20,101 bases of DNA from an uncultured virus (IMG/VR IMGVR_UViG_3300043473_000054) (lineage: Duplodnaviria > Heunggongvirae > Uroviricota > Caudoviricetes): the IMG/VR virus record IMGVR_UViG_3300043473_000054; one strand, written 5' to 3'. The translations under genes were made by a program, and so were the position numbers. The notes beneath the pieces were generated by a model. That model worked only from the letters and a program-made list of their open reading frames with translations, was not told the DNA's origin and made no database searches. The first letter of the stretch is position 1. Every line of letters begins with the position of its first letter. Positions 6,298 through 19,251 of the stretch are shown in pieces.

Positions 6298-6873
6298 ATG
6301 GCGCGGGCAGGGCGCAAGCGCAAGGACGTGGCGCGACGGCGCAAGCCTGGCACTGCGAAGCCTGAAGCCACACGCCGGCCTGTTCTCGTCGAGGACCGCA
6401 TGCGCGACGAGATCGAGCAGCGGATGGAAGCACGGCCACGCCGCCAATCTATCCGCGAGCCGGCGCCGCGAGTGGCGGAAACGCCGCTAGTTGCCATCAG
6501 TCGGCGGGATGTCGAGGAAAGGGTATTGCGAGCCTTAAAAACCCTGCGCGCATTACCGGACAAAGGCAGACGGGCACAAGCGGCGCATGGCGGCTGGCCG
6601 GACTATGTTCACGAAGCGATGGACGCCTACAACAGCGTTGAAGAGCGGGAGCGGTTTCAGCCAACTCCGCATGATATCTCTGACTATCTGAAGGCTCTTT
6701 CCTGGTGTCGGCACCTGCCGCGCAATGAGTGGAAATTGTTATGGTTTCGGTCGTTTGATCTATCGTTTGGACTAATAGGGGACTATATTGGCCGCAGCGA
6801 TGAGACTGCGCGGAGGCGTTATGAAGCGAGCATCACTGAAGTCTGGTATGCAGCAAATAACCACCGGGCGTGA
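6298..6873 (+). CDS. DUF6362-like putative late-gene regulator with C-terminal HTH (Q position)
   Basis: VEERVLRALKTLRALPD...WPDYVHE...PTPHDIS...ALSW...LSFGLIGDYIGRSDETARRRYEASI (sigma region 4-like HTH); lies before the late promoter. Confidence 0.7.
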   Translation: MARAGRKRKDVARRRKPGTAKPEATRRPVLVEDRMRDEIEQRMEARPRRQSIREPAPRVAETPLVAISRRDVEERVLRALKTLRALPDKGRRAQAAHGGWPDYVHEAMDAYNSVEERERFQPTPHDISDYLKALSWCRHLPRNEWKLLWFRSFDLSFGLIGDYIGRSDETARRRYEASITEVWYAANNHRA

Positions 6874-7360
6874 TGCTCTTCAGGACTATTTCCAAGACTA
6901 CACGAAATTGGTTTGGCTCGTGGACTGGCGAGCGGTTAAGCTTCCCTATTGCACGGTTTACGTTATCGCTCCGGAGGCTAGCTGGCCCAGCAAGGTCGGA
7001 ATAGCAGTTTGCGCCCGGAAGCGGGTTGCCGCGTTGCAATGCTCACACTGGAAGCGGCTGGCGGTGACGCACTGCTATTGGGCTCCGACGATTGCGGATG
7101 CGCGCAAGGTGGAGAAGAAAGCCCACGCTCTCATCAAGGACGAGCCGAACGGTTTTCTGCTTGGCGAGTGGTTCAACAAGAAGCCGAACGAGGCGGCAGA
7201 GGTGGTGCGCTTTGCAGCCCAATCGGTAGGGGTGGAGCTGAACGATACCATTGAGGACATGAATGCTCGGGAGAGCATCCGCGACCGGTGGCAGCAGGGC
7301 CTCTACGAGGAAACTGTCCGCATTGGGCACTACACGGGCTTCTTCGAGCGCAGGAAATAG
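6848..7360 (+). CDS. GIY-YIG superfamily (T5orf172/MUG113-like) protein
   Basis: VYVIA...SKVGIA...RKRVAALQ...ARKVEKKAHALI...GEWF motifs. Confidence 0.8.
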   Translation: MQQITTGRDALQDYFQDYTKLVWLVDWRAVKLPYCTVYVIAPEASWPSKVGIAVCARKRVAALQCSHWKRLAVTHCYWAPTIADARKVEKKAHALIKDEPNGFLLGEWFNKKPNEAAEVVRFAAQSVGVELNDTIEDMNARESIRDRWQQGLYEETVRIGHYTGFFERRK

Positions 7361-8678: not shown

Positions 8679-9026
8679 ATGCCATTCCAACCCGGCAACC
8701 AATTAGCTAACAAAATCAACAAGCAACGGCCGCGCATCATTACGCAGAACCTCATCGCGCTGCTGCATGAGGTGGACCCTAACGATGTCCCCAAAGTCCG
8801 GCGCTTCGCCGAGGCATTGCTCGCAAAGGCTCTTGAAGGCGATGTCGCGGCCATGAAGGAAGTCGCCGATCGCGTAGACGGCAGAGTGCCTGTGCAAGTG
8901 CAGGGCGATCCAGACAACCCTCTCGTCATCCAGACAGTCGTCCGCGAAATCGTTCACGTGGACACAACACAGCGGATCAATCCAAACGTCGCCCTGAGCA
9001 ATGCTGGCAATTCCAGAGCCGCTTGA
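8679..9026 (+). CDS. terS: Putative terminase small subunit (DUF5681-like)
   Basis: MPFQPGNQ...LLAKALEGDVAAMKEVADRVDGR.P...GDPDNPL motifs; directly upstream of TerL. Confidence 0.75.
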   Translation: MPFQPGNQLANKINKQRPRIITQNLIALLHEVDPNDVPKVRRFAEALLAKALEGDVAAMKEVADRVDGRVPVQVQGDPDNPLVIQTVVREIVHVDTTQRINPNVALSNAGNSRAA

Positions 9027-10314
9027 GGGCGATAAGCTCTACATCCGAACTGCGCCAGTCTTCGAGCCGCTCCTCGCGCCAGCCCGCTACAAGGGCGCCT
9101 ACGGAGGCCGCGGCTCTGGCAAGTCACACTTCTTCGCGGAGGCCCTCGTCGAGGAGTGCATCGTCACTCCAGGAACGGCCGCAGTCTGCATCCGCGAAGT
9201 CCAACGCACCCTCACCCAGTCAGCCAAGCGCCTCATCGAGCAGAAGATCGCGCAGCTCGGCGTGGGCCCGCTGTTTCGCATCCTCGACGACCGCATAGAG
9301 GCGCCGGGCAAAGGCCTCATCATCTTCCAGGGCATGCAGGATCACACGGCGGAGTCGATCAAGAGCCTGGAAGGCTTCCGTATCGCCTGGATAGAGGAGG
9401 CACAGACGCTGTCCCACCGCAGCCTCGCACTACTCAGACCGACAATTCGTGCAGAAAACTCCGAAATATGGGCCTCCTGGAACCCGCGCCGCAAGAGTGA
9501 CGCCATCGACGAGTTCCTCCGCCAGCAGAAGCCGCCCGGCGCAGTCGTCGTCGAGGCGAATTGGCGGGACAACCCCTGGTTCCCAGAGGTTTTGGTCTCA
9601 GAGCGTGAAATTGACCAAGAACGCTACCCAGAGCGGTATGATCACATATGGGAAGGCGGCTATGCCAAGGCGTTCGAGGGTGCTTATTTCGCCGCCGGGC
9701 TTAACGAGGCAAAGGCGCAGGGACGAATTGGGCGAGTGTCCGCTGACCCGCTATTACCGCTCCGAGCCTTTTTTGACCTGGGAGGCTCAGGGGCTTCCGC
9801 CGATGCCATGGCGATCTGGATTGTTCAGTGGGTCGGCCAGGAAATCCGCGTCCTCGACTACATCGAGGGCATGGGACAGGTGCTCGCCTACTACGTCGAC
9901 GAGCTGCGCCAGCGCAAATACGACAAGGCCATCTGCTACCTCCCGCACGACGGCGTGAACGCTAACGCCATCACCGGCAAGCGCTATGAAGATCATCTGC
10001 GGGAGGCAGGCTTTTCCGTCGAGCCGCCAGTGAAGAACCAGGGGCGTGGGGCCGCCATGATGCGCGTCGAGGCGGTCAGGCGGCTGTTCCCGCGCATGTG
10101 GTTCAATGAGGCAACGACGGAAGCCGGGCGCGATGCGCTGGGCTATTACCATGAGCGGCGTGATGACGACCGACAGGTGGGGCTCGGCCCGTCGCACGAT
10201 TGGAGTTCGCACGCGGCCGACGCACTAGGCCTCTGCGCTATCTGCTACGAGGAGCCGTCTCGGTCGGCGGGCTTTGGGCGGAAGCTGGTGTATCAGAAGC
10301 TTGGCATCGTCTGA
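9001..10314 (+). CDS. terL: Terminase large subunit, PBSX family
   Basis: Walker A GGRGSGKS, Walker B AWIEEAQ, SWNP, nuclease FFDLG and HDWSSHAADA motifs. Confidence 0.97.
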   Translation: MLAIPEPLEGDKLYIRTAPVFEPLLAPARYKGAYGGRGSGKSHFFAEALVEECIVTPGTAAVCIREVQRTLTQSAKRLIEQKIAQLGVGPLFRILDDRIEAPGKGLIIFQGMQDHTAESIKSLEGFRIAWIEEAQTLSHRSLALLRPTIRAENSEIWASWNPRRKSDAIDEFLRQQKPPGAVVVEANWRDNPWFPEVLVSEREIDQERYPERYDHIWEGGYAKAFEGAYFAAGLNEAKAQGRIGRVSADPLLPLRAFFDLGGSGASADAMAIWIVQWVGQEIRVLDYIEGMGQVLAYYVDELRQRKYDKAICYLPHDGVNANAITGKRYEDHLREAGFSVEPPVKNQGRGAAMMRVEAVRRLFPRMWFNEATTEAGRDALGYYHERRDDDRQVGLGPSHDWSSHAADALGLCAICYEEPSRSAGFGRKLVYQKLGIV

Positions 10315-11257: not shown

Positions 11258-11637
11258 TGGGCAAGCGCAAGGGCGATCTTCCGCCATCTAGAGAGAGGCG
11301 TAAAGACAGGATACGTCGGCTGAATAAAGCGACGCTGATTGAGATGGTATTTGCCGAGGAGAAGAGGACCCACTTTTGGTTTGAGGAGAATAAGCACCAC
11401 AAGGATGCGCTGAAGCAGATGAAGCGTGAACTGGACCGCGCAAAGCACGACCTGCATGTGCATGGCGTGAATGGCGACTACCTCGGCATGTCGGTGCGTC
11501 TGGAGGTCGCCCAAGCTGAACTGCGCGGTGCCAAGGCAGACCTGAAGATCCTTGAGGAGGCACTCGCCGACAAGCAGGCCGGCAATCCCAATTGGGAGAA
11601 CGTGGCCGTGATGAAGATGCGCAAGGCGCGCTACTGA
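11257..11637 (+). CDS. Hypothetical basic coiled-coil protein inserted between the portal halves (126 aa)
   Basis: Intact ORF, TGATG-coupled at both ends, no portal or endonuclease motifs. Confidence 0.75.
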   Translation: MGKRKGDLPPSRERRKDRIRRLNKATLIEMVFAEEKRTHFWFEENKHHKDALKQMKRELDRAKHDLHVHGVNGDYLGMSVRLEVAQAELRGAKADLKILEEALADKQAGNPNWENVAVMKMRKARY

Positions 11638-13553
11638 TGGCCCTGCCTCCCTATCCCATGCAGCCTCCCGGGCCTCCCGGCGCAACCCCCGGGCTTGACC
11701 CGCGGGCCATGCCTATGGGGCCTCCTGGCGGCATGGGACCGCCACCGCCGGGAGGCCCGCCAGGGCCACCAGGGATGCCGCCAGGCGGGCCGATGCGTCC
11801 TCCCGGCCCTCCGCCGCCTCCTGGCGCTCCACCGCCTCCAGCGGGCATGCAGGGGCCTCCTGGCCCACCTCCAATGCCTCCACCTCCTCCGCCCATGCCG
11901 GAGACGGTGCATGACGTGAAGATCAGCCGCATCCGCAAATACGGCTGCGCCAGGGTCGAGAACGTGCCGCCGGAGGAGTTTGGCGTCTCGCGGCGGCAAC
12001 GCTCCGTCATGCTGCGCGACTGCGACTACTGCTACCACGAAGTCAGGAAGACGGAGGCCGAGCTTATCGCTGCCGGCTACGACAAGGAGCAGGTCAAGGC
12101 GCTGCCCGACTATGCCGGCGATGGCACGACGGAGGAGATCGCCCGCGACACGGTGGACGACAATGCATTGTCGGGGTCCGAGGGGCTGAACAAGGCCAAC
12201 CGGCAGATCCGCGTCACCGAGCACTACGTGATGATGGACTATGAGGGCGACGGCAAGCCGCGCCGCTATCGGGTGACGACGGCTGGCAGCGGTAGCGAGA
12301 TCCTGAAGCGCAAGGGCCGCCCGGAGATCGTGCCGGACATGGTGCGCTTTGCCGCCATGACGCCGTTCATCAATCCGCACCGCTTCTATGGCACGTCCAT
12401 TGCCGACCTCGTCATGGACATTCAGAGGATTAAGACTGCGTTACTCCGGCAATTGCTCGACAACGTCTATTTTTCCAACAACCAGCGCTTGGAAGTCGCT
12501 GAGGATGGGGCGACAAAGGACACGATCGACGACGTGCTGTCGAATAGGGTCGGCGGCATCATCCGCACCCGTCGCATCGGCTCGGTCGCACCTGTCCCGA
12601 ACCAGCCGATCGGAAGCTTCGTGTTTCCCATGCTGGAATACATGGACACGCTGCGGGAGTGGCGCACGGGTGTGACGCGGCAGGGCCAGGGCCTCGACCC
12701 GAACGCCTTGCAGAACATCGGCGAGCGGGCCGTGCTCGACGCGCAGAACGCCGCCCGCGCCAAGATGAAGCTCATCGCTCGCATCTTCGCCGAGACGGGC
12801 ATTCGGGAGATGTTCTGGCTGCTGCACGCGACGATCCGCCAGAACGCCAGTGAGGCCGAGACAGTGAAGCTGCGCGGCCAGTGGGTGAAGGTAGACGCGC
12901 AGGAATGGCGCGAGCGCAACGATCTCACCATCAACGTCGGGCTTGGCTCCGGCGACAAGAGCCAGGAAATCATGGTGCTGCGCGAGATCATGCAGATCCA
13001 GGGCAACGCCATGACGAGCCCGAAGATGACCGGGCTCGCTGGGCCGCAGCAGGTTTACAACACGGTCAAGCAACTCACGCGCAAGGCGGGGCTGAACTCA
13101 CCTGATCCCTACTTCACCGATCCGAGCAAGACGCCTCCGCAGCCTCCCGAGCCTTCTCCCGAGGAGAAGAAGGGCATGGCGGAGATGCAGTTGAAGCAGG
13201 CTGACATGCAGATGCGTCAGCAGGGCGCTATGGCCGACGCTCAGATGCGCCAACAGCAGGCGCAGCAGGACATGGCCATGCAGCAGGCCAAGGCGCAGCA
13301 GGATGCCGCGCTGCAGCGTGAGAAGTTCATGCTCGACGCGCAGCTTCAGCGTGAGCAGATGCAGGCCGACGCGGAATTGAAGCGGGCGCAGATTGATGCC
13401 GAATTGATGCTGAAGCGGGAGACGCTCGCGGCGGAACTGGCATTGAAGCGCGAACTTGCGATGGCTGGGCTGCAGCTCAAAGCCTCAATGCCGCCTCCGG
13501 GCTCGAATGGCGGCGGGACGAGCGGCGTGCACATAGGCGGCGAGCCAGGGTAG
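11637..13553 (+). CDS. Portal protein, C-terminal fragment (638 aa) with Pro/Gly-rich N-terminus and Gln-rich barrel
   Basis: HDVKISR...VENVPPEEF...PHRFYGTSIADLVMDIQRIKTALLRQLLDNVY...RTGVTRQGQGLDPNALQ...LIARIFAETG...INVGLG portal motifs. Confidence 0.92.
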   Translation: MALPPYPMQPPGPPGATPGLDPRAMPMGPPGGMGPPPPGGPPGPPGMPPGGPMRPPGPPPPPGAPPPPAGMQGPPGPPPMPPPPPPMPETVHDVKISRIRKYGCARVENVPPEEFGVSRRQRSVMLRDCDYCYHEVRKTEAELIAAGYDKEQVKALPDYAGDGTTEEIARDTVDDNALSGSEGLNKANRQIRVTEHYVMMDYEGDGKPRRYRVTTAGSGSEILKRKGRPEIVPDMVRFAAMTPFINPHRFYGTSIADLVMDIQRIKTALLRQLLDNVYFSNNQRLEVAEDGATKDTIDDVLSNRVGGIIRTRRIGSVAPVPNQPIGSFVFPMLEYMDTLREWRTGVTRQGQGLDPNALQNIGERAVLDAQNAARAKMKLIARIFAETGIREMFWLLHATIRQNASEAETVKLRGQWVKVDAQEWRERNDLTINVGLGSGDKSQEIMVLREIMQIQGNAMTSPKMTGLAGPQQVYNTVKQLTRKAGLNSPDPYFTDPSKTPPQPPEPSPEEKKGMAEMQLKQADMQMRQQGAMADAQMRQQQAQQDMAMQQAKAQQDAALQREKFMLDAQLQREQMQADAELKRAQIDAELMLKRETLAAELALKRELAMAGLQLKASMPPPGSNGGGTSGVHIGGEPG

Positions 13554-13914: not shown

Positions 13915-15003
13915 ATGTCTGAGCCAACCCAACCCGACGCGGGAGCGCCGGCACCCGAGCCTATTGCGCCCGTTCCCGAGCCTTCTACTCCTCCTCCATC
14001 TCCGCCGCCCTCCGACGCGCCAATTACCGCGCGCGAGGCCGCGGATCTCATTTCCGGTAAGACGGACAAACCTTCGGCACCAGATGGTGCTGACGCCGCC
14101 CCCGAAAGGCCCAGCGGCGAGACTGACGGTAGCGACGACCCTTCTCAGAAGCCCATCGACGCCCCGAGGTCATGGACGAAAGCCGACAAGGAAGCTTTTG
14201 CGAGCCTCCCCCGAGACACCCAGGAACGCATCCTGGCGCTCGACAGGACACGCGAGCTGGAATTGCGGCGCGGCCAAAACGAAGCCGCCGAGCAGCGAAA
14301 GGCCGCCGAGGCCCTGGCGCAGCAGGCGGAACAGGCACAAGCGCAAGCACGATGGCAGTATGAGCAGTCGCTGCCGCAGCAGGCGCTGTTGCTGGACGCC
14401 GAGTATCGAAAAGAGTTCGGGACGCCCACCTGGGACGATCTTCAGGACTGGCAACGTAACGATCCGCTCCGATACCAAGCATGGGATCTGGCCTACAAGC
14501 GGCTGACGCATGCGTCGGCTGAACTGCAGGCGCAGCAAGCCCAGCAAGCCCAGCAGCAGCAATACCAGCAGCAGCAATTCATGCAGAACGCGGAGGCGTG
14601 GAGGGCCGAGGAGGCACAGAAATTCGCTGAGGAATTTCCCGAGTGGAAAGACCCGAAAACCTATCAGGCGAATGTCTCCGAGGTCATGGATTTTATGAAG
14701 GACACCGGCTTCGAGCAGGACTTTCTGGCTCGCGCCGCTAGTGAGTTCCTGCCGATCCAGATCCACGATCACCGCTTTCAAAAGCTCGTCTGGAAGGCCC
14801 TTCAGTACGACAAGGCATTGAAGGCCACCAAGTCACCGTCACGCTCCCCTGTTCCTCCTGTCCAGCGTCCGGGCAGCGCTCCCAATCGGGGAGAGGCTCA
14901 AGAGGCTCGGTTCAAAGACCTCAACCGCCAATTGGACCGCACTGGCAGTCTCAAGGATGCCGCAAGGCTTATCGCGGCACTGAACGGCAGTCGGTCCCCG
15001 TAA
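13915..15003 (+). CDS. Capsid scaffolding protein
   Basis: Position before the capsid gene; disordered N-terminus, APRSW...FASLP motif, coiled coil, C-terminal TGSLKDAARLI helix. Confidence 0.85.
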   Translation: MSEPTQPDAGAPAPEPIAPVPEPSTPPPSPPPSDAPITAREAADLISGKTDKPSAPDGADAAPERPSGETDGSDDPSQKPIDAPRSWTKADKEAFASLPRDTQERILALDRTRELELRRGQNEAAEQRKAAEALAQQAEQAQAQARWQYEQSLPQQALLLDAEYRKEFGTPTWDDLQDWQRNDPLRYQAWDLAYKRLTHASAELQAQQAQQAQQQQYQQQQFMQNAEAWRAEEAQKFAEEFPEWKDPKTYQANVSEVMDFMKDTGFEQDFLARAASEFLPIQIHDHRFQKLVWKALQYDKALKATKSPSRSPVPPVQRPGSAPNRGEAQEARFKDLNRQLDRTGSLKDAARLIAALNGSRSP

Positions 15004-15012
15004 AGGACGACA

Positions 15013-16223
15013 ATGACAGTTCCAACAGATGTCTTTGCTACCTATCAGTCTATCGGTAACAGAGAGGACCTTAGCGATACCATCTATCGCATCTCGCCTA
15101 CAGAAACGCCATTTTTGAGCGGCGTTGAGAAGGTGAAAGCGAAGGCAGTGAACCACGAGTAACGACTACTGCTCGTGTAAAACTGGGTGAATTGCGGGGA
15201 AGCCCTACCGGGTAAGGCCGGGGGTAATCCGCAGCCAAGCCGCGCAAGTAGGCGAGAGCCGAGAGGTGCGGAAGGTTCAACGACTAGGCTCCGAGCGAAA
15301 GCGGTAATGAGCCCACGAGCGCCCAGCCCTTCGCAAGAAGGTGATGAGATAGTCTGAACTCCGATCGACGAGACGGAGAAGCAGCGGATAAAGAGCCGCT
15401 GCGATAACACATTGGGCAAGTTCAAAACCTCGCCGCGGCCTCCACTGCGAATGCTGTCTTGGAAGGCGACGACGCGACGATCGACGCCGCCACGCCAACG
15501 GTCAGGCTGGGAAACATCGCCCAGATCTCTGACAAGGTCGCGGCGGTGACCGGCACGGAGAACGCCATCGACCGGGCCGGGCGCGACAACGAGCTGTCCT
15601 ATCAGCTTGCGTTGAAAGGCCAGGAACTGAAGCGCGACATGGAGAGCATCCTGCTTTCCAACCAGGCGAAGAATGCCGGCGCAATCGGCACGGCGCGTAA
15701 GACCGCGAGCATACTGGCGTGGATCGGCACCAACGACAGCCTCGGGGCCGGCGCCGCTGCCTCTCCGGTGACTCTCGACGGTCTCGCCACGCGGACTGAC
15801 GGCACGCAGCGGGCGTTCACCGAGGCGTTATTGAAGCCGGTGCTGCAGCTCATCTGGAACGAGGGCGGCGATCCCGACACCATCATGGTCGGCGGCGCAA
15901 ACAAGCAGGCGTTCTCGACTTTCACGGGCCGCACCGGCACGGCCGGGCCGAATGAACAGACGACGAGCAAGAAAATCGTAAATAATGTTGAGATTTACGA
16001 AGGGGATTTTGGCACACTTAAAGTAGTGGCCAACCGCTTCATGAGAACACGCGATTGCCTAGTCTTGGAGATGGACAAGTGGGCCGTCGCGTATCTCAGG
16101 AATATGCGTCGCTGGGATCTGGCTAAAACCGGAGATAGCGAAAAGACGCAGATCCTCTGTGAATACGCGTTAGAGGCGAGGAACGAGAAAGCGTCGGGCT
16201 TGGTTGCCGACCTTACTCCGTAG
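15013..16223 (+). CDS. Major capsid protein (SU10/DUF5309 type), intron-split: join(15013..15160,15415..16223), 318 aa
   Basis: AAAGGA SD; exon 1 MTVPTDVFATYQSIGNREDLSDTIYRISPTETPFLS...AVNHE; T+GG restores W; exon 2 QVQNLAAASTANAVLEGDD...ELKRDME...LAKTGDSEK...EYALEARNEKASG. Confidence 0.95.
15161..15414 (+). ncRNA. Group I self-splicing intron (254 nt, no homing endonuclease)
   Basis: Exon ends in U, intron ends in G; P1 CACGAGT/GCTCGTG with U-G at the splice site; P3 CTGGGTG/CGCCCAG; P AATTGCGGGGAA; Q AATCCGCAGC; R GTTCAACGACTA; S GAGATAGTC; P7 GACTA/TAGTC; P8 CCTTC-GCAA-GAAGG; P9 stems. Confidence 0.95.
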
Positions 16224-17318: not shown

Positions 17319-17606
17319 ATGGCAACACAATATTGGGGTGCGGGTCGCATCGGCACGCACCAGAGCATCGCATACACCGGCACGGCGGGGACGGTCGCCA
17401 ATACCATCACGGCCGGGGTGCAGAAGGTGCGCGTCTGTGCGACGAGCGCCTGCTACATCACCATCGGCGTTTCGCCCACGGCCACGACGGCGGGCGTTTA
17501 TATGCCGGCCGATACGGTGGAGTATTTCACCATCGGGCCGGGTGAGAAGGTGAGTGCCATCCAGTCCTCGGCCGGCGGCACGCTGCACGTCACCGAGGTC
17601 AGTTAA
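17319..17606 (+). CDS. Small beta-rich virion protein (head fibre base or decoration-like, 95 aa)
   Basis: GAGAGGG SD; Thr/Gly/Ala-rich beta pattern VRVCATSACYITIG..PTAT...MPADTVEYF. Confidence 0.7.
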   Translation: MATQYWGAGRIGTHQSIAYTGTAGTVANTITAGVQKVRVCATSACYITIGVSPTATTAGVYMPADTVEYFTIGPGEKVSAIQSSAGGTLHVTEVS

Positions 17607-17610
17607 GCCC

Positions 17611-19251
17611 ATGGCGTTCGGGCGGCTCGGCAGTCTCGGGACCGGCTTCGGCCGGCTCGGGGCCAGGGCACATGGCGGCACTGCCGCGATACCCAGCGGC
17701 TCGGATATGCTGGCCGGCGAGACGGACGGCTTTGCCACCAGCTTCATCAACGCAACGGATGCCAGTCGCGTGGCGGTCAAGGTCGCGAGTGTGACGACCT
17801 CGCAGGGCCTCGACACCTTCTACCAGAATGCCGGCACCAGCCCGAAGATGGTGTTCGACGTGGCCGGCAATCTGGTCTGGTCGCCGCACAATCTGGTGCT
17901 TCAGTCAGAGACCATGGACAACGCCTCCTGGAACAAGGGGGCGCAAGTCGCGATCACGGCCGATGCCACGGCGGCACCAACCGGTGCTGTGACCGCCGAC
18001 AAGCTGGCGAACCTCAATACGGCATCCTCTAACAAGGGCATGCTGGCCAGCACGATCAGCTTTAGTATCAATAACACCTATACCTTCGCAGTGTGGGCGA
18101 AGGCGGCTGAGTGGAGCTGGATCGCCATCGAGGACCGCAACACCGCCACCCGCAAGACCTATTTCGATCTTGGCACGGGTGCGGTCGGAACGATCAACGC
18201 CGCCCATTCGGGAGCGACCATCACCTCCGGCGGCAATGGCTGGTACAAGTGCGCGATCACCTGGGTTTCGCCCGATACAGCCAGCAATACCCCGGTCATC
18301 TACCTGCAGACGGCAAATGCGCAGGGTGTAGTTACGGGCGTGGTCGGTGCAGGCGTGTATCTGTGGGGAGCACAATGTAATCGCGGCGCAACGCTCAGCA
18401 CCTACCTGCCCACGACGACGGCGGCGCGCGCCGGCCTGGCCGTCGACTACGACCTGGCAGCACACACGCCAAGGGGCTTGCTGGTGGAGCTCGCGGCGAC
18501 CAACCTGGCGCTCAATAACGCCACGCTCTCGACGCAGACCATAACGGTATCAACCCTCACGACCTACGTCCTGTCATTCTGGGGCACGGGCACCGTCACG
18601 CTGACCGGCGCATCGACGGCAGGTCCGTTGGCGGGGAGCAGCGCGACAACGCGCGTATCACTAAGTTTTGCGACTTCCGGGACATCGCTGACTCTGACGG
18701 TGAGTGGAACAGTCAGCAACGCGCAACTGGAGCTTGGCACGGCGCCCACCTCACTGATACCGACTCTCGCGGCTAGCGTCACGCGGGTGGCGGACAATTA
18801 CACCTTCCTGCTTTCCACCATTCCGGCGCTTGGGTCCGCCTATTCGATTTACTGCCGGTTTTCCACGCCGGTCATTGCCAACGCTAAGCACGCGGTGGCG
18901 GTGACGGACGGGACAGTGAACGAGTACGCCGGATTTCTCGCCAACACGACGGCGCGGCTGGCGGTGCTGGACGGCGGTGTGGCTGTGGGGGCCATTGTCG
19001 GGCCAACGCTGGTTGCTAATACGGCAGTCTCAGCGGCAGCGCGCATCAAGCTCAACGATTGCGCCATGTCGGTCGGCGGAGGAGCTGCAGCTTTCGATAC
19101 CACAGTCACATTGCCGACCGTCACCGAGGTGCGCTTTGGCGGCACCGGCAACAACGTGGCATCGACCGGCAGCTTCTACATCGAGAAGCTCGCCATCATC
19201 AACGCACGCGGCTGGACCGATGCCGAGCTGGTGGGAAAGTCTGCCACATGA
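17611..19251 (+). CDS. Head spike or fibre protein with carbohydrate-binding-like domains (546 aa)
   Basis: NLVLQSE...W...APTGAVTADKL...YTFAVWAKA...GNGWYKC...YLWGAQ...GLLVE.AATNL...QLELG..PTS.IPT....VTR.AD motifs typical of phage spike/fibre proteins. Confidence 0.75.
   Translation: MAFGRLGSLGTGFGRLGARAHGGTAAIPSGSDMLAGETDGFATSFINATDASRVAVKVASVTTSQGLDTFYQNAGTSPKMVFDVAGNLVWSPHNLVLQSETMDNASWNKGAQVAITADATAAPTGAVTADKLANLNTASSNKGMLASTISFSINNTYTFAVWAKAAEWSWIAIEDRNTATRKTYFDLGTGAVGTINAAHSGATITSGGNGWYKCAITWVSPDTASNTPVIYLQTANAQGVVTGVVGAGVYLWGAQCNRGATLSTYLPTTTAARAGLAVDYDLAAHTPRGLLVELAATNLALNNATLSTQTITVSTLTTYVLSFWGTGTVTLTGASTAGPLAGSSATTRVSLSFATSGTSLTLTVSGTVSNAQLELGTAPTSLIPTLAASVTRVADNYTFLLSTIPALGSAYSIYCRFSTPVIANAKHAVAVTDGTVNEYAGFLANTTARLAVLDGGVAVGAIVGPTLVANTAVSAAARIKLNDCAMSVGGGAAAFDTTVTLPTVTEVRFGGTGNNVASTGSFYIEKLAIINARGWTDAELVGKSAT

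Follow-up and report, generated by a model that had tools for sequence, protein, structure and literature searches.

Group I introns have been described in virion structural genes of several phages. In Cluster J mycobacteriophages, Pope et al. (2013, PMC3706429) report a spliced group I intron with a bottom-strand LAGLIDADG-like open reading frame (ORF) in the capsid gene of LittleE and, in a tail gene of BAKA and Optimus, a 265-bp intron that lacks an endonuclease gene; splicing of the Cluster J introns was proven there by reverse transcription-PCR and N-terminal sequencing, and a capsid-gene intron in lactococcal phage Tuc2009 is cited in the same paper. Among crAss-like phages, introns in the gene for the major capsid protein (MCP) are described as typical of the Delta group, and one Zeta-group MCP is encoded in five fragments (Yutin et al. 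2021, PMC7886860); on that description, intron insertion into the major capsid gene is already established among uncultured phages. Here, we analyze a 20,101-nucleotide (nt) stretch of an uncultured soil phage (IMG/VR record IMGVR_UViG_3300043473_000054; the whole stretch is referred to as the window), in which an SU10-type major capsid gene lies in two pieces between the scaffold and tail genes. The 254-nt segment that separates the two pieces (positions 15161 to 15414) is very probably a functional, endonuclease-less, self-splicing group I intron.

The segment lies on the plus strand, begins with AACGAC, and ends with CATTG. It is flanked by exon 1 (15013 to 15160, plus strand; 49 codons and the T of the Trp50 codon, ending in CACGAGT) and exon 2 (15415 to 16223, plus strand; the GG of Trp50, followed by 268 codons and a stop codon, and beginning with GGCAAG). 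A sequence-only reading of the window had proposed that a group I intron splits a Trp codon (T/GG) within a conserved HEWQ motif and had suggested a search with group I models as a check. In that search, RF00028 matched positions 15103 to 15378 at 60.0 bits (gathering threshold, 50 bits; E = 3.1e-13; model positions 1 to 253) and was the sole Rfam match at the gathering threshold across the whole 20-kb window. Exon 1 was assigned to PHROG 1328 (i.e., major head protein), and the Pfam family SU10_MCP (PF17236, formerly DUF5309; cut-off, 24.1 bits) matched exon 1 over profile positions 5 to 44 (32.7 bits) and the exon 2 translation from Q51 over profile positions 47 to 292 (278.4 bits; E = 1e-82). 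The two exons together account for a full-length match to the family, and the profile gap at the junction comprises exactly two positions, W and Q. Homologues were sought among 5.8 billion proteins. Uninterrupted 318-amino-acid (aa) homologues were returned, and two of them (P0003 and P0004) read AVNHEWQ over the junction; P0003 is 99% identical to the window across exon 2, while the first 49 residues of P0004 are identical to exon 1. The HEWQ motif was found in 114 of the 115 full-length homologues among the 120 best matches. When 15160 was computationally joined to 15415, the result was a 957-nt coding sequence (CDS) with a single, terminal stop codon, encoding 318 aa, of which 312 are identical to P0003. 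Because the Pfam gap, the uninterrupted homologues, and the computed join agree, we place the intron at 15161 to 15414, and the proposed split of the Trp codon is borne out.

An in-frame TAA (T/AA; 15160 to 15162, plus strand) straddles the 5' splice site, so that translation of unspliced RNA would stop after 49 aa, as had been predicted. The associated claim, that the capsid protein would require removal of the intron, is supported by the homology described above and by the covariation and exon conservation described below. At the Trp50 site, all five introns have AA or AG after the exon U (i.e., UAA or UAG), and the last base is G in all five, corresponding in the window to a terminal guanosine at 15414 (plus strand) at the 3' splice site. 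The longest ORF within the intron encodes only 56 aa from a GTG start (taken from the ORF list and not scanned against Pfam); the intron is therefore considered to lack an endonuclease gene, and no intron-encoded homing endonuclease was recognized in it.

The predicted RNA structure (all coordinates on the plus strand) contains every element of the group I core that the sequence-only reading had listed, i.e., P1 with a U-G pair, P3 to P9, P7.1, and a terminal G; neither a P2 nor a second hairpin beside P7.1 was found in the intron. P1 consists of 7 bp between the exon end (15154 to 15160) and the internal guide (15171 to 15177), with U15160-G15171 at the cleavage site and a loop at 15161 to 15170. 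P3 (15183 to 15189 with 15320 to 15326) encloses P4 to P6, the 5' strand of P7, and P7.1. Within it lie P4 (15193 to 15198 with 15228 to 15233), P5 (15203 to 15205 with 15222 to 15224), and P5a (15208 to 15211 with 15218 to 15221), together with three helices that also occur in the minimum free energy (MFE) fold, namely, P6 (15234 to 15235 with 15275 to 15276), P6a (15240 to 15245 with 15266 to 15271), and P6b (15251 to 15253 with 15258 to 15260). P7 (15282 to 15286 with 15350 to 15354) forms a pseudoknot with P3 and, by analogy with other group I introns, would hold the guanosine-binding site. The P7.1 hairpin (15287 to 15291 with 15309 to 15313) sits between P7 and the 3' strand of P3, and it is followed by P8 (15328 to 15332 with 15337 to 15341; 5 bp with a GCAA loop), P9 (15359 to 15363 with 15374 to 15378, extended by 15365 to 15366 with 15372 to 15373), and P9.1 (15381 to 15387 with 15396 to 15402). 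The nucleotides of J3/4 and of the P4-P6 junction agree with the Rfam consensus. Unconstrained folding gave an MFE of -98.8 kcal/mol (z-score, -3.29; equal stability in 0 of 200 shuffles) and recovered P3, P4, P5/P5a, P6/P6a/P6b, P7.1, P8, P9, and P9.1 in a fold that cannot represent the P7 pseudoknot. Subgroup IA was reportedly defined by Michel and Westhof in 1990 through the extra helices P7.1/P7.2 between P7 and the 3' strand of P3. With its P7.1 insert and no P2, the predicted structure bears some resemblance to that subgroup.

Sequence around the genes of related capsid proteins was collected from 163 loci (79 from viruses, L001, 3 from genomes, and 80 from metagenomes), and the uninterrupted P0003 was aligned to each by tblastn. 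Six introns from three insertion sites (the window, L089, L010, L160, L101, and L007) were then combined into an alignment on which the structure derived from the window's own sequence was scored: 96.9% of the 262 cells form standard pairs, and 18 of the 44 pairs are altered on both sides. None of 500 shuffles reached any of the five measures, and slid controls paired at 35 to 48%. Paired cells reach 100% in P3 (7 pairs, 1 altered on both sides) and in P7.1 (3 of 5 pairs altered on both sides) and 96.7% in P7 (5 pairs, 1 altered on both sides, in L010); two P4 pairs swap G-C and C-G, and changes on both sides are found in 3 of the 5 pairs of P9 and in 5 of the 7 pairs of P9.1. P6a and P6b, whose length varies among the relatives, were left unscored. 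In the distant relative L011, P1 is formed by exon CAUGAAU and guide GUUCAUG (CACGAGU and GCUCGUG in the window), with two exon-intron pairs compensated (G-C to A-U and C-G to U-A), which indicates that P1 co-evolves with its exon.

The exons point in the same direction. Between the window and intron-bearing L007, 22 of the 147 nt of exon 1 differ, and the differences amount to 19 synonymous and no nonsynonymous codons; between the window and intronless L003, 18 synonymous and 2 nonsynonymous codon differences are found. By these counts, purifying selection acts on exon 1 where the gene carries an intron, and exon 1 appears still to be part of a used gene, since a severed 49-codon piece would not stay so conserved. 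Sliding DNA identity along the exons, compared with intron-bearing and intronless relatives, is a mosaic (0.53 to 0.98), with no clear co-conversion tract at the junction.

The compact form of the intron was found on contigs from three soil studies. In run X1, which may be the window's own sample, a single 414-nt contig covers 15021 to 15434 with no differences. In run X2, from another study, two contigs cover 15021 to 15201 and 15173 to 15344, again with no differences, and contigs of run X3, from a third study, tile the intron as variants. In one X3 contig (15278 to 15410), 15361C>G is accompanied by 15376G>C and 15365T>C by 15373A>G, so that P9 stays paired. Another run (X20), guessed to be of RNA, gave in record 12 a single 70-nt match to positions 15258 to 15327 (i.e., the P6-P7-P3' core only); its contig continues past P3' with a different P8 and belongs to a further soil member of the intron lineage.

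Four other introns occupy the Trp50 site in relatives with closely related capsid proteins, namely, L007 (984 nt; L007 1515 to 2498), L005 and L006 (832 nt each), and L087 (702 nt), and a further 905-nt insert occupies it in L011, whose capsid protein is about 51 to 61% identical. The Trp50 introns all follow GAGU or GAAU and end in G. The L007 intron (45.2 bits with Rfam; E = 1.4e-9) belongs to the same lineage as that of the window, and it has a 54-nt insertion in P5 and, in the P8 loop, an ORF for a 215-aa LAGLIDADG_3 protein that is antisense to both the intron and the capsid gene; in the coordinates of L001, which is the same contig (also represented as G001), this ORF lies at 852 to 1499 on the plus strand and the intron on the minus strand. 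Sense-strand LAGLIDADG ORFs were found in L005, L011, and L087, with LAGLIDADG_3 matches in L005 and L011 and a score of 21.4 bits in L087, just below the 22.5-bit cut-off. Identity between the proteins of L005 and L011 is 45%, and both have only distant likeness to that of L007. Compared by eye, the 3' tails (from P9 to the splice site) of L007 (2430 to 2497) and L005 (2432 to 2499) are nearly identical; L087 (approximately 1530 to 1601) was compared as well. The 5' cores of L007 and L005 belong to different lineages, and the comparison suggests that these introns are recombinant mosaics.

The window and L089 served to build a covariance model (R1), which located the window's ribozyme lineage at codon 30/31 as well, with both junctions present in L010 and L160 and partial copies, whose 5' junctions are off the contig, in L101 and L086. 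The L010 intron (1483 to 2440; identical to L099) interrupts ISPT/ETPF and carries a 283-aa HNH ORF whose start lies about 50 nt inside the intron and which runs through P3 to P7 and a P7.1 expansion of about 170 nt. Its P1 appears to comprise only about 4 bp. An A-C mismatch in P7 was observed in both L010 and L086. At codon 22/23 (LSD/IIYK), the L089 intron (1447 to 2409) has an HNH ORF with helix-turn-helix domains between P1 and P3, so that forms at both of these sites carry HNH ORFs; its P1 is not clearly definable. A fourth site near codon 247 (NTVD/VYEGDFG) is occupied in L092 (approximately 804 to 1527) by an insert with a 7-bp P1, a U-G pair, and a 183-aa ORF that has a LAGLIDADG-like motif by eye and no Pfam match. 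Weak R1 matches (7 to 16 bits, at approximately 1757 to 1915) in about 23 distant loci (e.g., L016 to L025 and L107) were rejected as chance or coding-sequence similarity; in L019, the matching stretch falls within an ORF of 304 aa that precedes the capsid gene, and no Rfam family matches it.

To count states within the clade, we considered distinct contigs that cover codon 50 and encode a capsid protein at least 79% identical (n = 15, including the window). Duplicates were counted once (L085 = L003, L088 = L004, L099 = L010, and L001 = L007), and L090, L091, L093, and L114, which lack the N terminus, were left out. An intron is present at codon 50 in five contigs (the window, L005, L006, L007, and L087), at codon 30/31 in four (L010, L086, L101, and L160), at codon 22/23 in one (L089), and near codon 247 in one (L092), while the gene is uninterrupted in four (L002, L003, L004, and L084); L002, L003, and L004, searched over the whole loci, gave no Rfam match at E ≤ 0.01. 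Thus, 11 of the 15 genes have one intron and, within the part covered, none has two. Of the loci that are more distantly related, L011 is the only split one, and a scan of genome contigs gave only three distant, unsplit, prophage-like copies.

Several observations weigh against a functional intron or against details of the structure. None of the listed sequencing runs is on record as RNA, no contig in X1, X2, X3, or X20 joins 15160 to 15415, and splicing was not observed. The exact 254-nt form did not recur in any of the 163 loci. P10 amounts to only about 2 bp. The covariation set is small, with six sequences of which three are close to each other, and L007 is partly misaligned in P4/P5, a misalignment that counts against the structure. 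The Rfam alignment puts P1/P2 in exon 1 (at low posterior probability) and omits the 36 nt at the 3' end, including P9.1; because it misplaces P1/P2 and stops before P9.1, we set the intron ends from the homologous proteins and the pairing of P1. Rfam searches of whole loci gave no match at E ≤ 0.01 for the inserts of L005, L010, and L011, and in searches of cut-out regions, those of L087 (17.6 bits; E = 0.059) and L092 (RF00028; 31.3 bits; E = 4.7e-6) scored below the gathering threshold. Since Rfam missed these larger inserts or scored them weakly, their group I status rests partly on R1 and inspection.

From the behavior of group I introns studied elsewhere, we infer the catalysis, timing, and mobility of this one. 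The late transcript would fold such that the exon end (15154 to 15160) pairs with the guide (15171 to 15177). A free guanosine bound in P7 would then attack after U15160, and the freed exon 1 would attack after G15414, thereby joining T and GG into the Trp50 codon of HEWQ. Ribosomes on unspliced RNA would halt at the TAA over the splice site. The intron may be either an ancestral minimal form or a form that has lost its homing gene, and different endonuclease genes (antisense LAGLIDADG and HNH) have entered the same intron lineage in relatives. The intron probably spreads or persists via recombination between co-infecting phages.

Some LAGLIDADG proteins act as maturases, and relatives with introns at the Trp50 site encode LAGLIDADG proteins. 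The segment may thus be a true group I intron that needs a protein helper in vivo (i.e., a maturase-type LAGLIDADG protein of a co-infecting relative or a host factor), in which case the capsid yield would be conditional. The weak P10 agrees with such dependence. We also observed that the P1 loop (15161 to 15168) duplicates 8 nt (AACGACUA) of the J6/7-P7 5' strand (15279 to 15286). Since the MFE fold pairs this copy with the 3' strand of P7, a competing fold is possible, and the competing pairing likewise speaks for a helper; the 8-nt repeat is not conserved in L007. However, the core lacks no element, is compact and rich in GC, and has stable helices capped by tetraloops, and ORF-less phage introns of similar size are reported to self-splice. 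Selection would moreover act strongly against a shell reliant on a co-infecting partner, whereas the compact form was found in three studies. We therefore regard a need for a helper as very unlikely.

The same segment could also be a decayed, inactive relic of a ribozyme, in which case the capsid gene would be a pseudogene and its carrier a defective phage or the remnant of a prophage. The runs and contigs searched gave no RNA evidence of splicing, an intron without an endonuclease gene is expected late in the homing cycle, and the P7 mismatch of L010 shows one altered core pair in a relative. Nevertheless, the core helices of the window intron are all intact, compensatory changes are frequent, the junction nucleotides match the Rfam consensus, and the natural variants in soil keep P9 paired. 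Both exons are intact and in frame, with the joined product matching the uninterrupted protein as given above, and the exclusively synonymous divergence of exon 1 from L007 is not that of a pseudogene. The neighboring head module (terminase, portal, scaffold, and tail) is intact as well. Decay thus appears very unlikely, and we favor a functional intron. An assembly chimera or misjoin, for which it could be said that the sole run with a contig over the whole intron (X1) may be the window's own sample, is highly improbable, because both junctions and the interior recur on contigs of two further studies, and homologous introns occur at the same codon in four other contigs.

The distribution of introns in this clade also allows a more speculative proposal about why the functional, ORF-less intron is retained. 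The N-terminal 50 codons may form a contested landing zone, in which one ribozyme lineage has retargeted to codons 22/23, 30/31, and 50, a second occupies codon 50 and approximately codon 247, and the introns have been invaded by at least three unrelated endonuclease genes; the ORF-less intron may be kept as immunity against LAGLIDADG cleavage by co-infecting relatives, since it breaks their HEWQ target site. We consider this proposal rather doubtful. If it were true, the intron would be a defense in phage-phage interference competition rather than the remnant of a parasite. The clade in any case provides a natural series within one capsid gene (an uninterrupted gene, an ORF-less intron, three arrangements with endonuclease genes, and two ribozyme lineages spread over four insertion sites) that could be used for studying intron retargeting and the entry and exit of endonuclease genes.

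The sequence-only reading had also suggested, as a speculation, that a free-standing GIY-YIG gene in the window mobilizes the intron in trans. The analysis did not bear this out. The gene (6788 to 7360) has weak Pfam matches only, to T5orf172 (24.0 bits) and MUG113 (22.8 bits), two families that we take to be members of the GIY-YIG clan, and it has no NCBIfam match. It is absent from all five related virus records (four of them at least 90% complete), whether intron-bearing or not, and is therefore probably accessory or itself mobile. No link between this gene and the intron was detectable, and the relatives of the intron instead encode their own LAGLIDADG or HNH genes.

The window as a whole represents a phage head-and-replication module, with genes for the large terminase (9001 to 10314), an SU10-type portal (11592 to 13553), a scaffold protein (13915 to 15003), and a tail protein (17554 to 19251); the capsid ATG at 15013 is 9 nt downstream of the scaffold stop. 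The sole long ORF downstream of the TAA runs from a TTG (15459 to 15461, plus strand) to 16223 and is reported by the ORF finder as a truncated 254-aa gene, although this TTG is codon Leu65 of the spliced protein. That gene callers would truncate the capsid gene in this way had been anticipated, and it fits the databases, in which the capsid proteins P0006, P0013, and P0089 begin at the equivalent codon. P0013 (254 aa) and P0089 (255 aa) were observed to be 69 to 74% identical, and each probably stems from another gene that bears an intron and was truncated when called. Because gene callers truncate such genes, ORF-less introns are silently misannotated in soil viromes, and public sets already hold truncated entries.

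Phage group I introns of the T4 td/nrdB/sunY type are self-splicing, lie in protein-coding genes, meet an in-frame stop codon shortly downstream of the 5' splice site, and carry P7.1-type extra helices and optional endonuclease ORFs in peripheral loops. They are found in nucleotide-metabolism genes and have a P2, whereas the intron described here lies in a capsid gene and has none. The crAss-like MCP introns, as described, belong to gut Bacteroidota phages with another capsid family and were detected via endonuclease domains (PMC7886860). A search keyed to such domains misses ORF-less introns, and the form in the window would accordingly escape it.

The Cluster J introns, as far as they are described in PMC3706429, lie in virion structural genes of tailed phages, with an exon 1 that ends in U and an intron that ends in G; the 265-bp ORF-less intron of BAKA resembles the 254-nt intron of the window, and the bottom-strand LAGLIDADG-like ORF of LittleE resembles that of L007. 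They differ in host (high-GC Gram-positive bacteria, compared with a probable soil proteobacterial phage here), in capsid family, and in insertion site; their splicing is proven, while that of the window is deduced from sequence. The sequence-only reading had called a minimal intron gating the main virion protein unusual. This was overstated, given the published capsid-gene introns, 265-bp ORF-less intron, and bottom-strand LAGLIDADG ORF (PMC3706429) and the MCP introns typical of Delta-group crAss-like phages (PMC7886860): on these descriptions, phage capsid genes with group I introns, ORF-less forms, and antisense endonuclease genes have all been published already. A literature search pairing introns with the DUF5309 capsid family found no paper, and in the literature searched, introns appear not to have been reported before in the SU10/DUF5309 family. 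SU10-type capsid genes occur in 327 cultured-phage records; among the matches listed, the gene is a single piece in all 40, and the closest is that of Bradyrhizobium phage ppBeUSDA76-2 (57.6%).

A counterpart that is partly alignable at the sequence level was found in Streptococcus thermophilus phage 2972, where RF00028 matches the orf3-orf4 gap, between two CDSs annotated as terminase large subunit, at 53.3 bits (L164 1263 to 1542; positions 2089 to 2368 of the record, in which no intron is annotated). The 3' part of this intron is 78 to 79% identical over about 79 nt to positions 15334 to 15412 of the window (J8/7 to P9.1). By blastn, the 3'-part match extends to 63 Streptococcus phage records (phage 2972 and 62 others), with only the 3' third alignable. 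The same unannotated gap between terminase CDSs was noticed in many S. thermophilus phage records. The phage 2972 intron differs from that of the window in lying in a terminase rather than a capsid gene and in a phage of a low-GC host; like that of the window, it is small, belongs to group I, and has no ORF, and the gene that it interrupts is a late one, for packaging.

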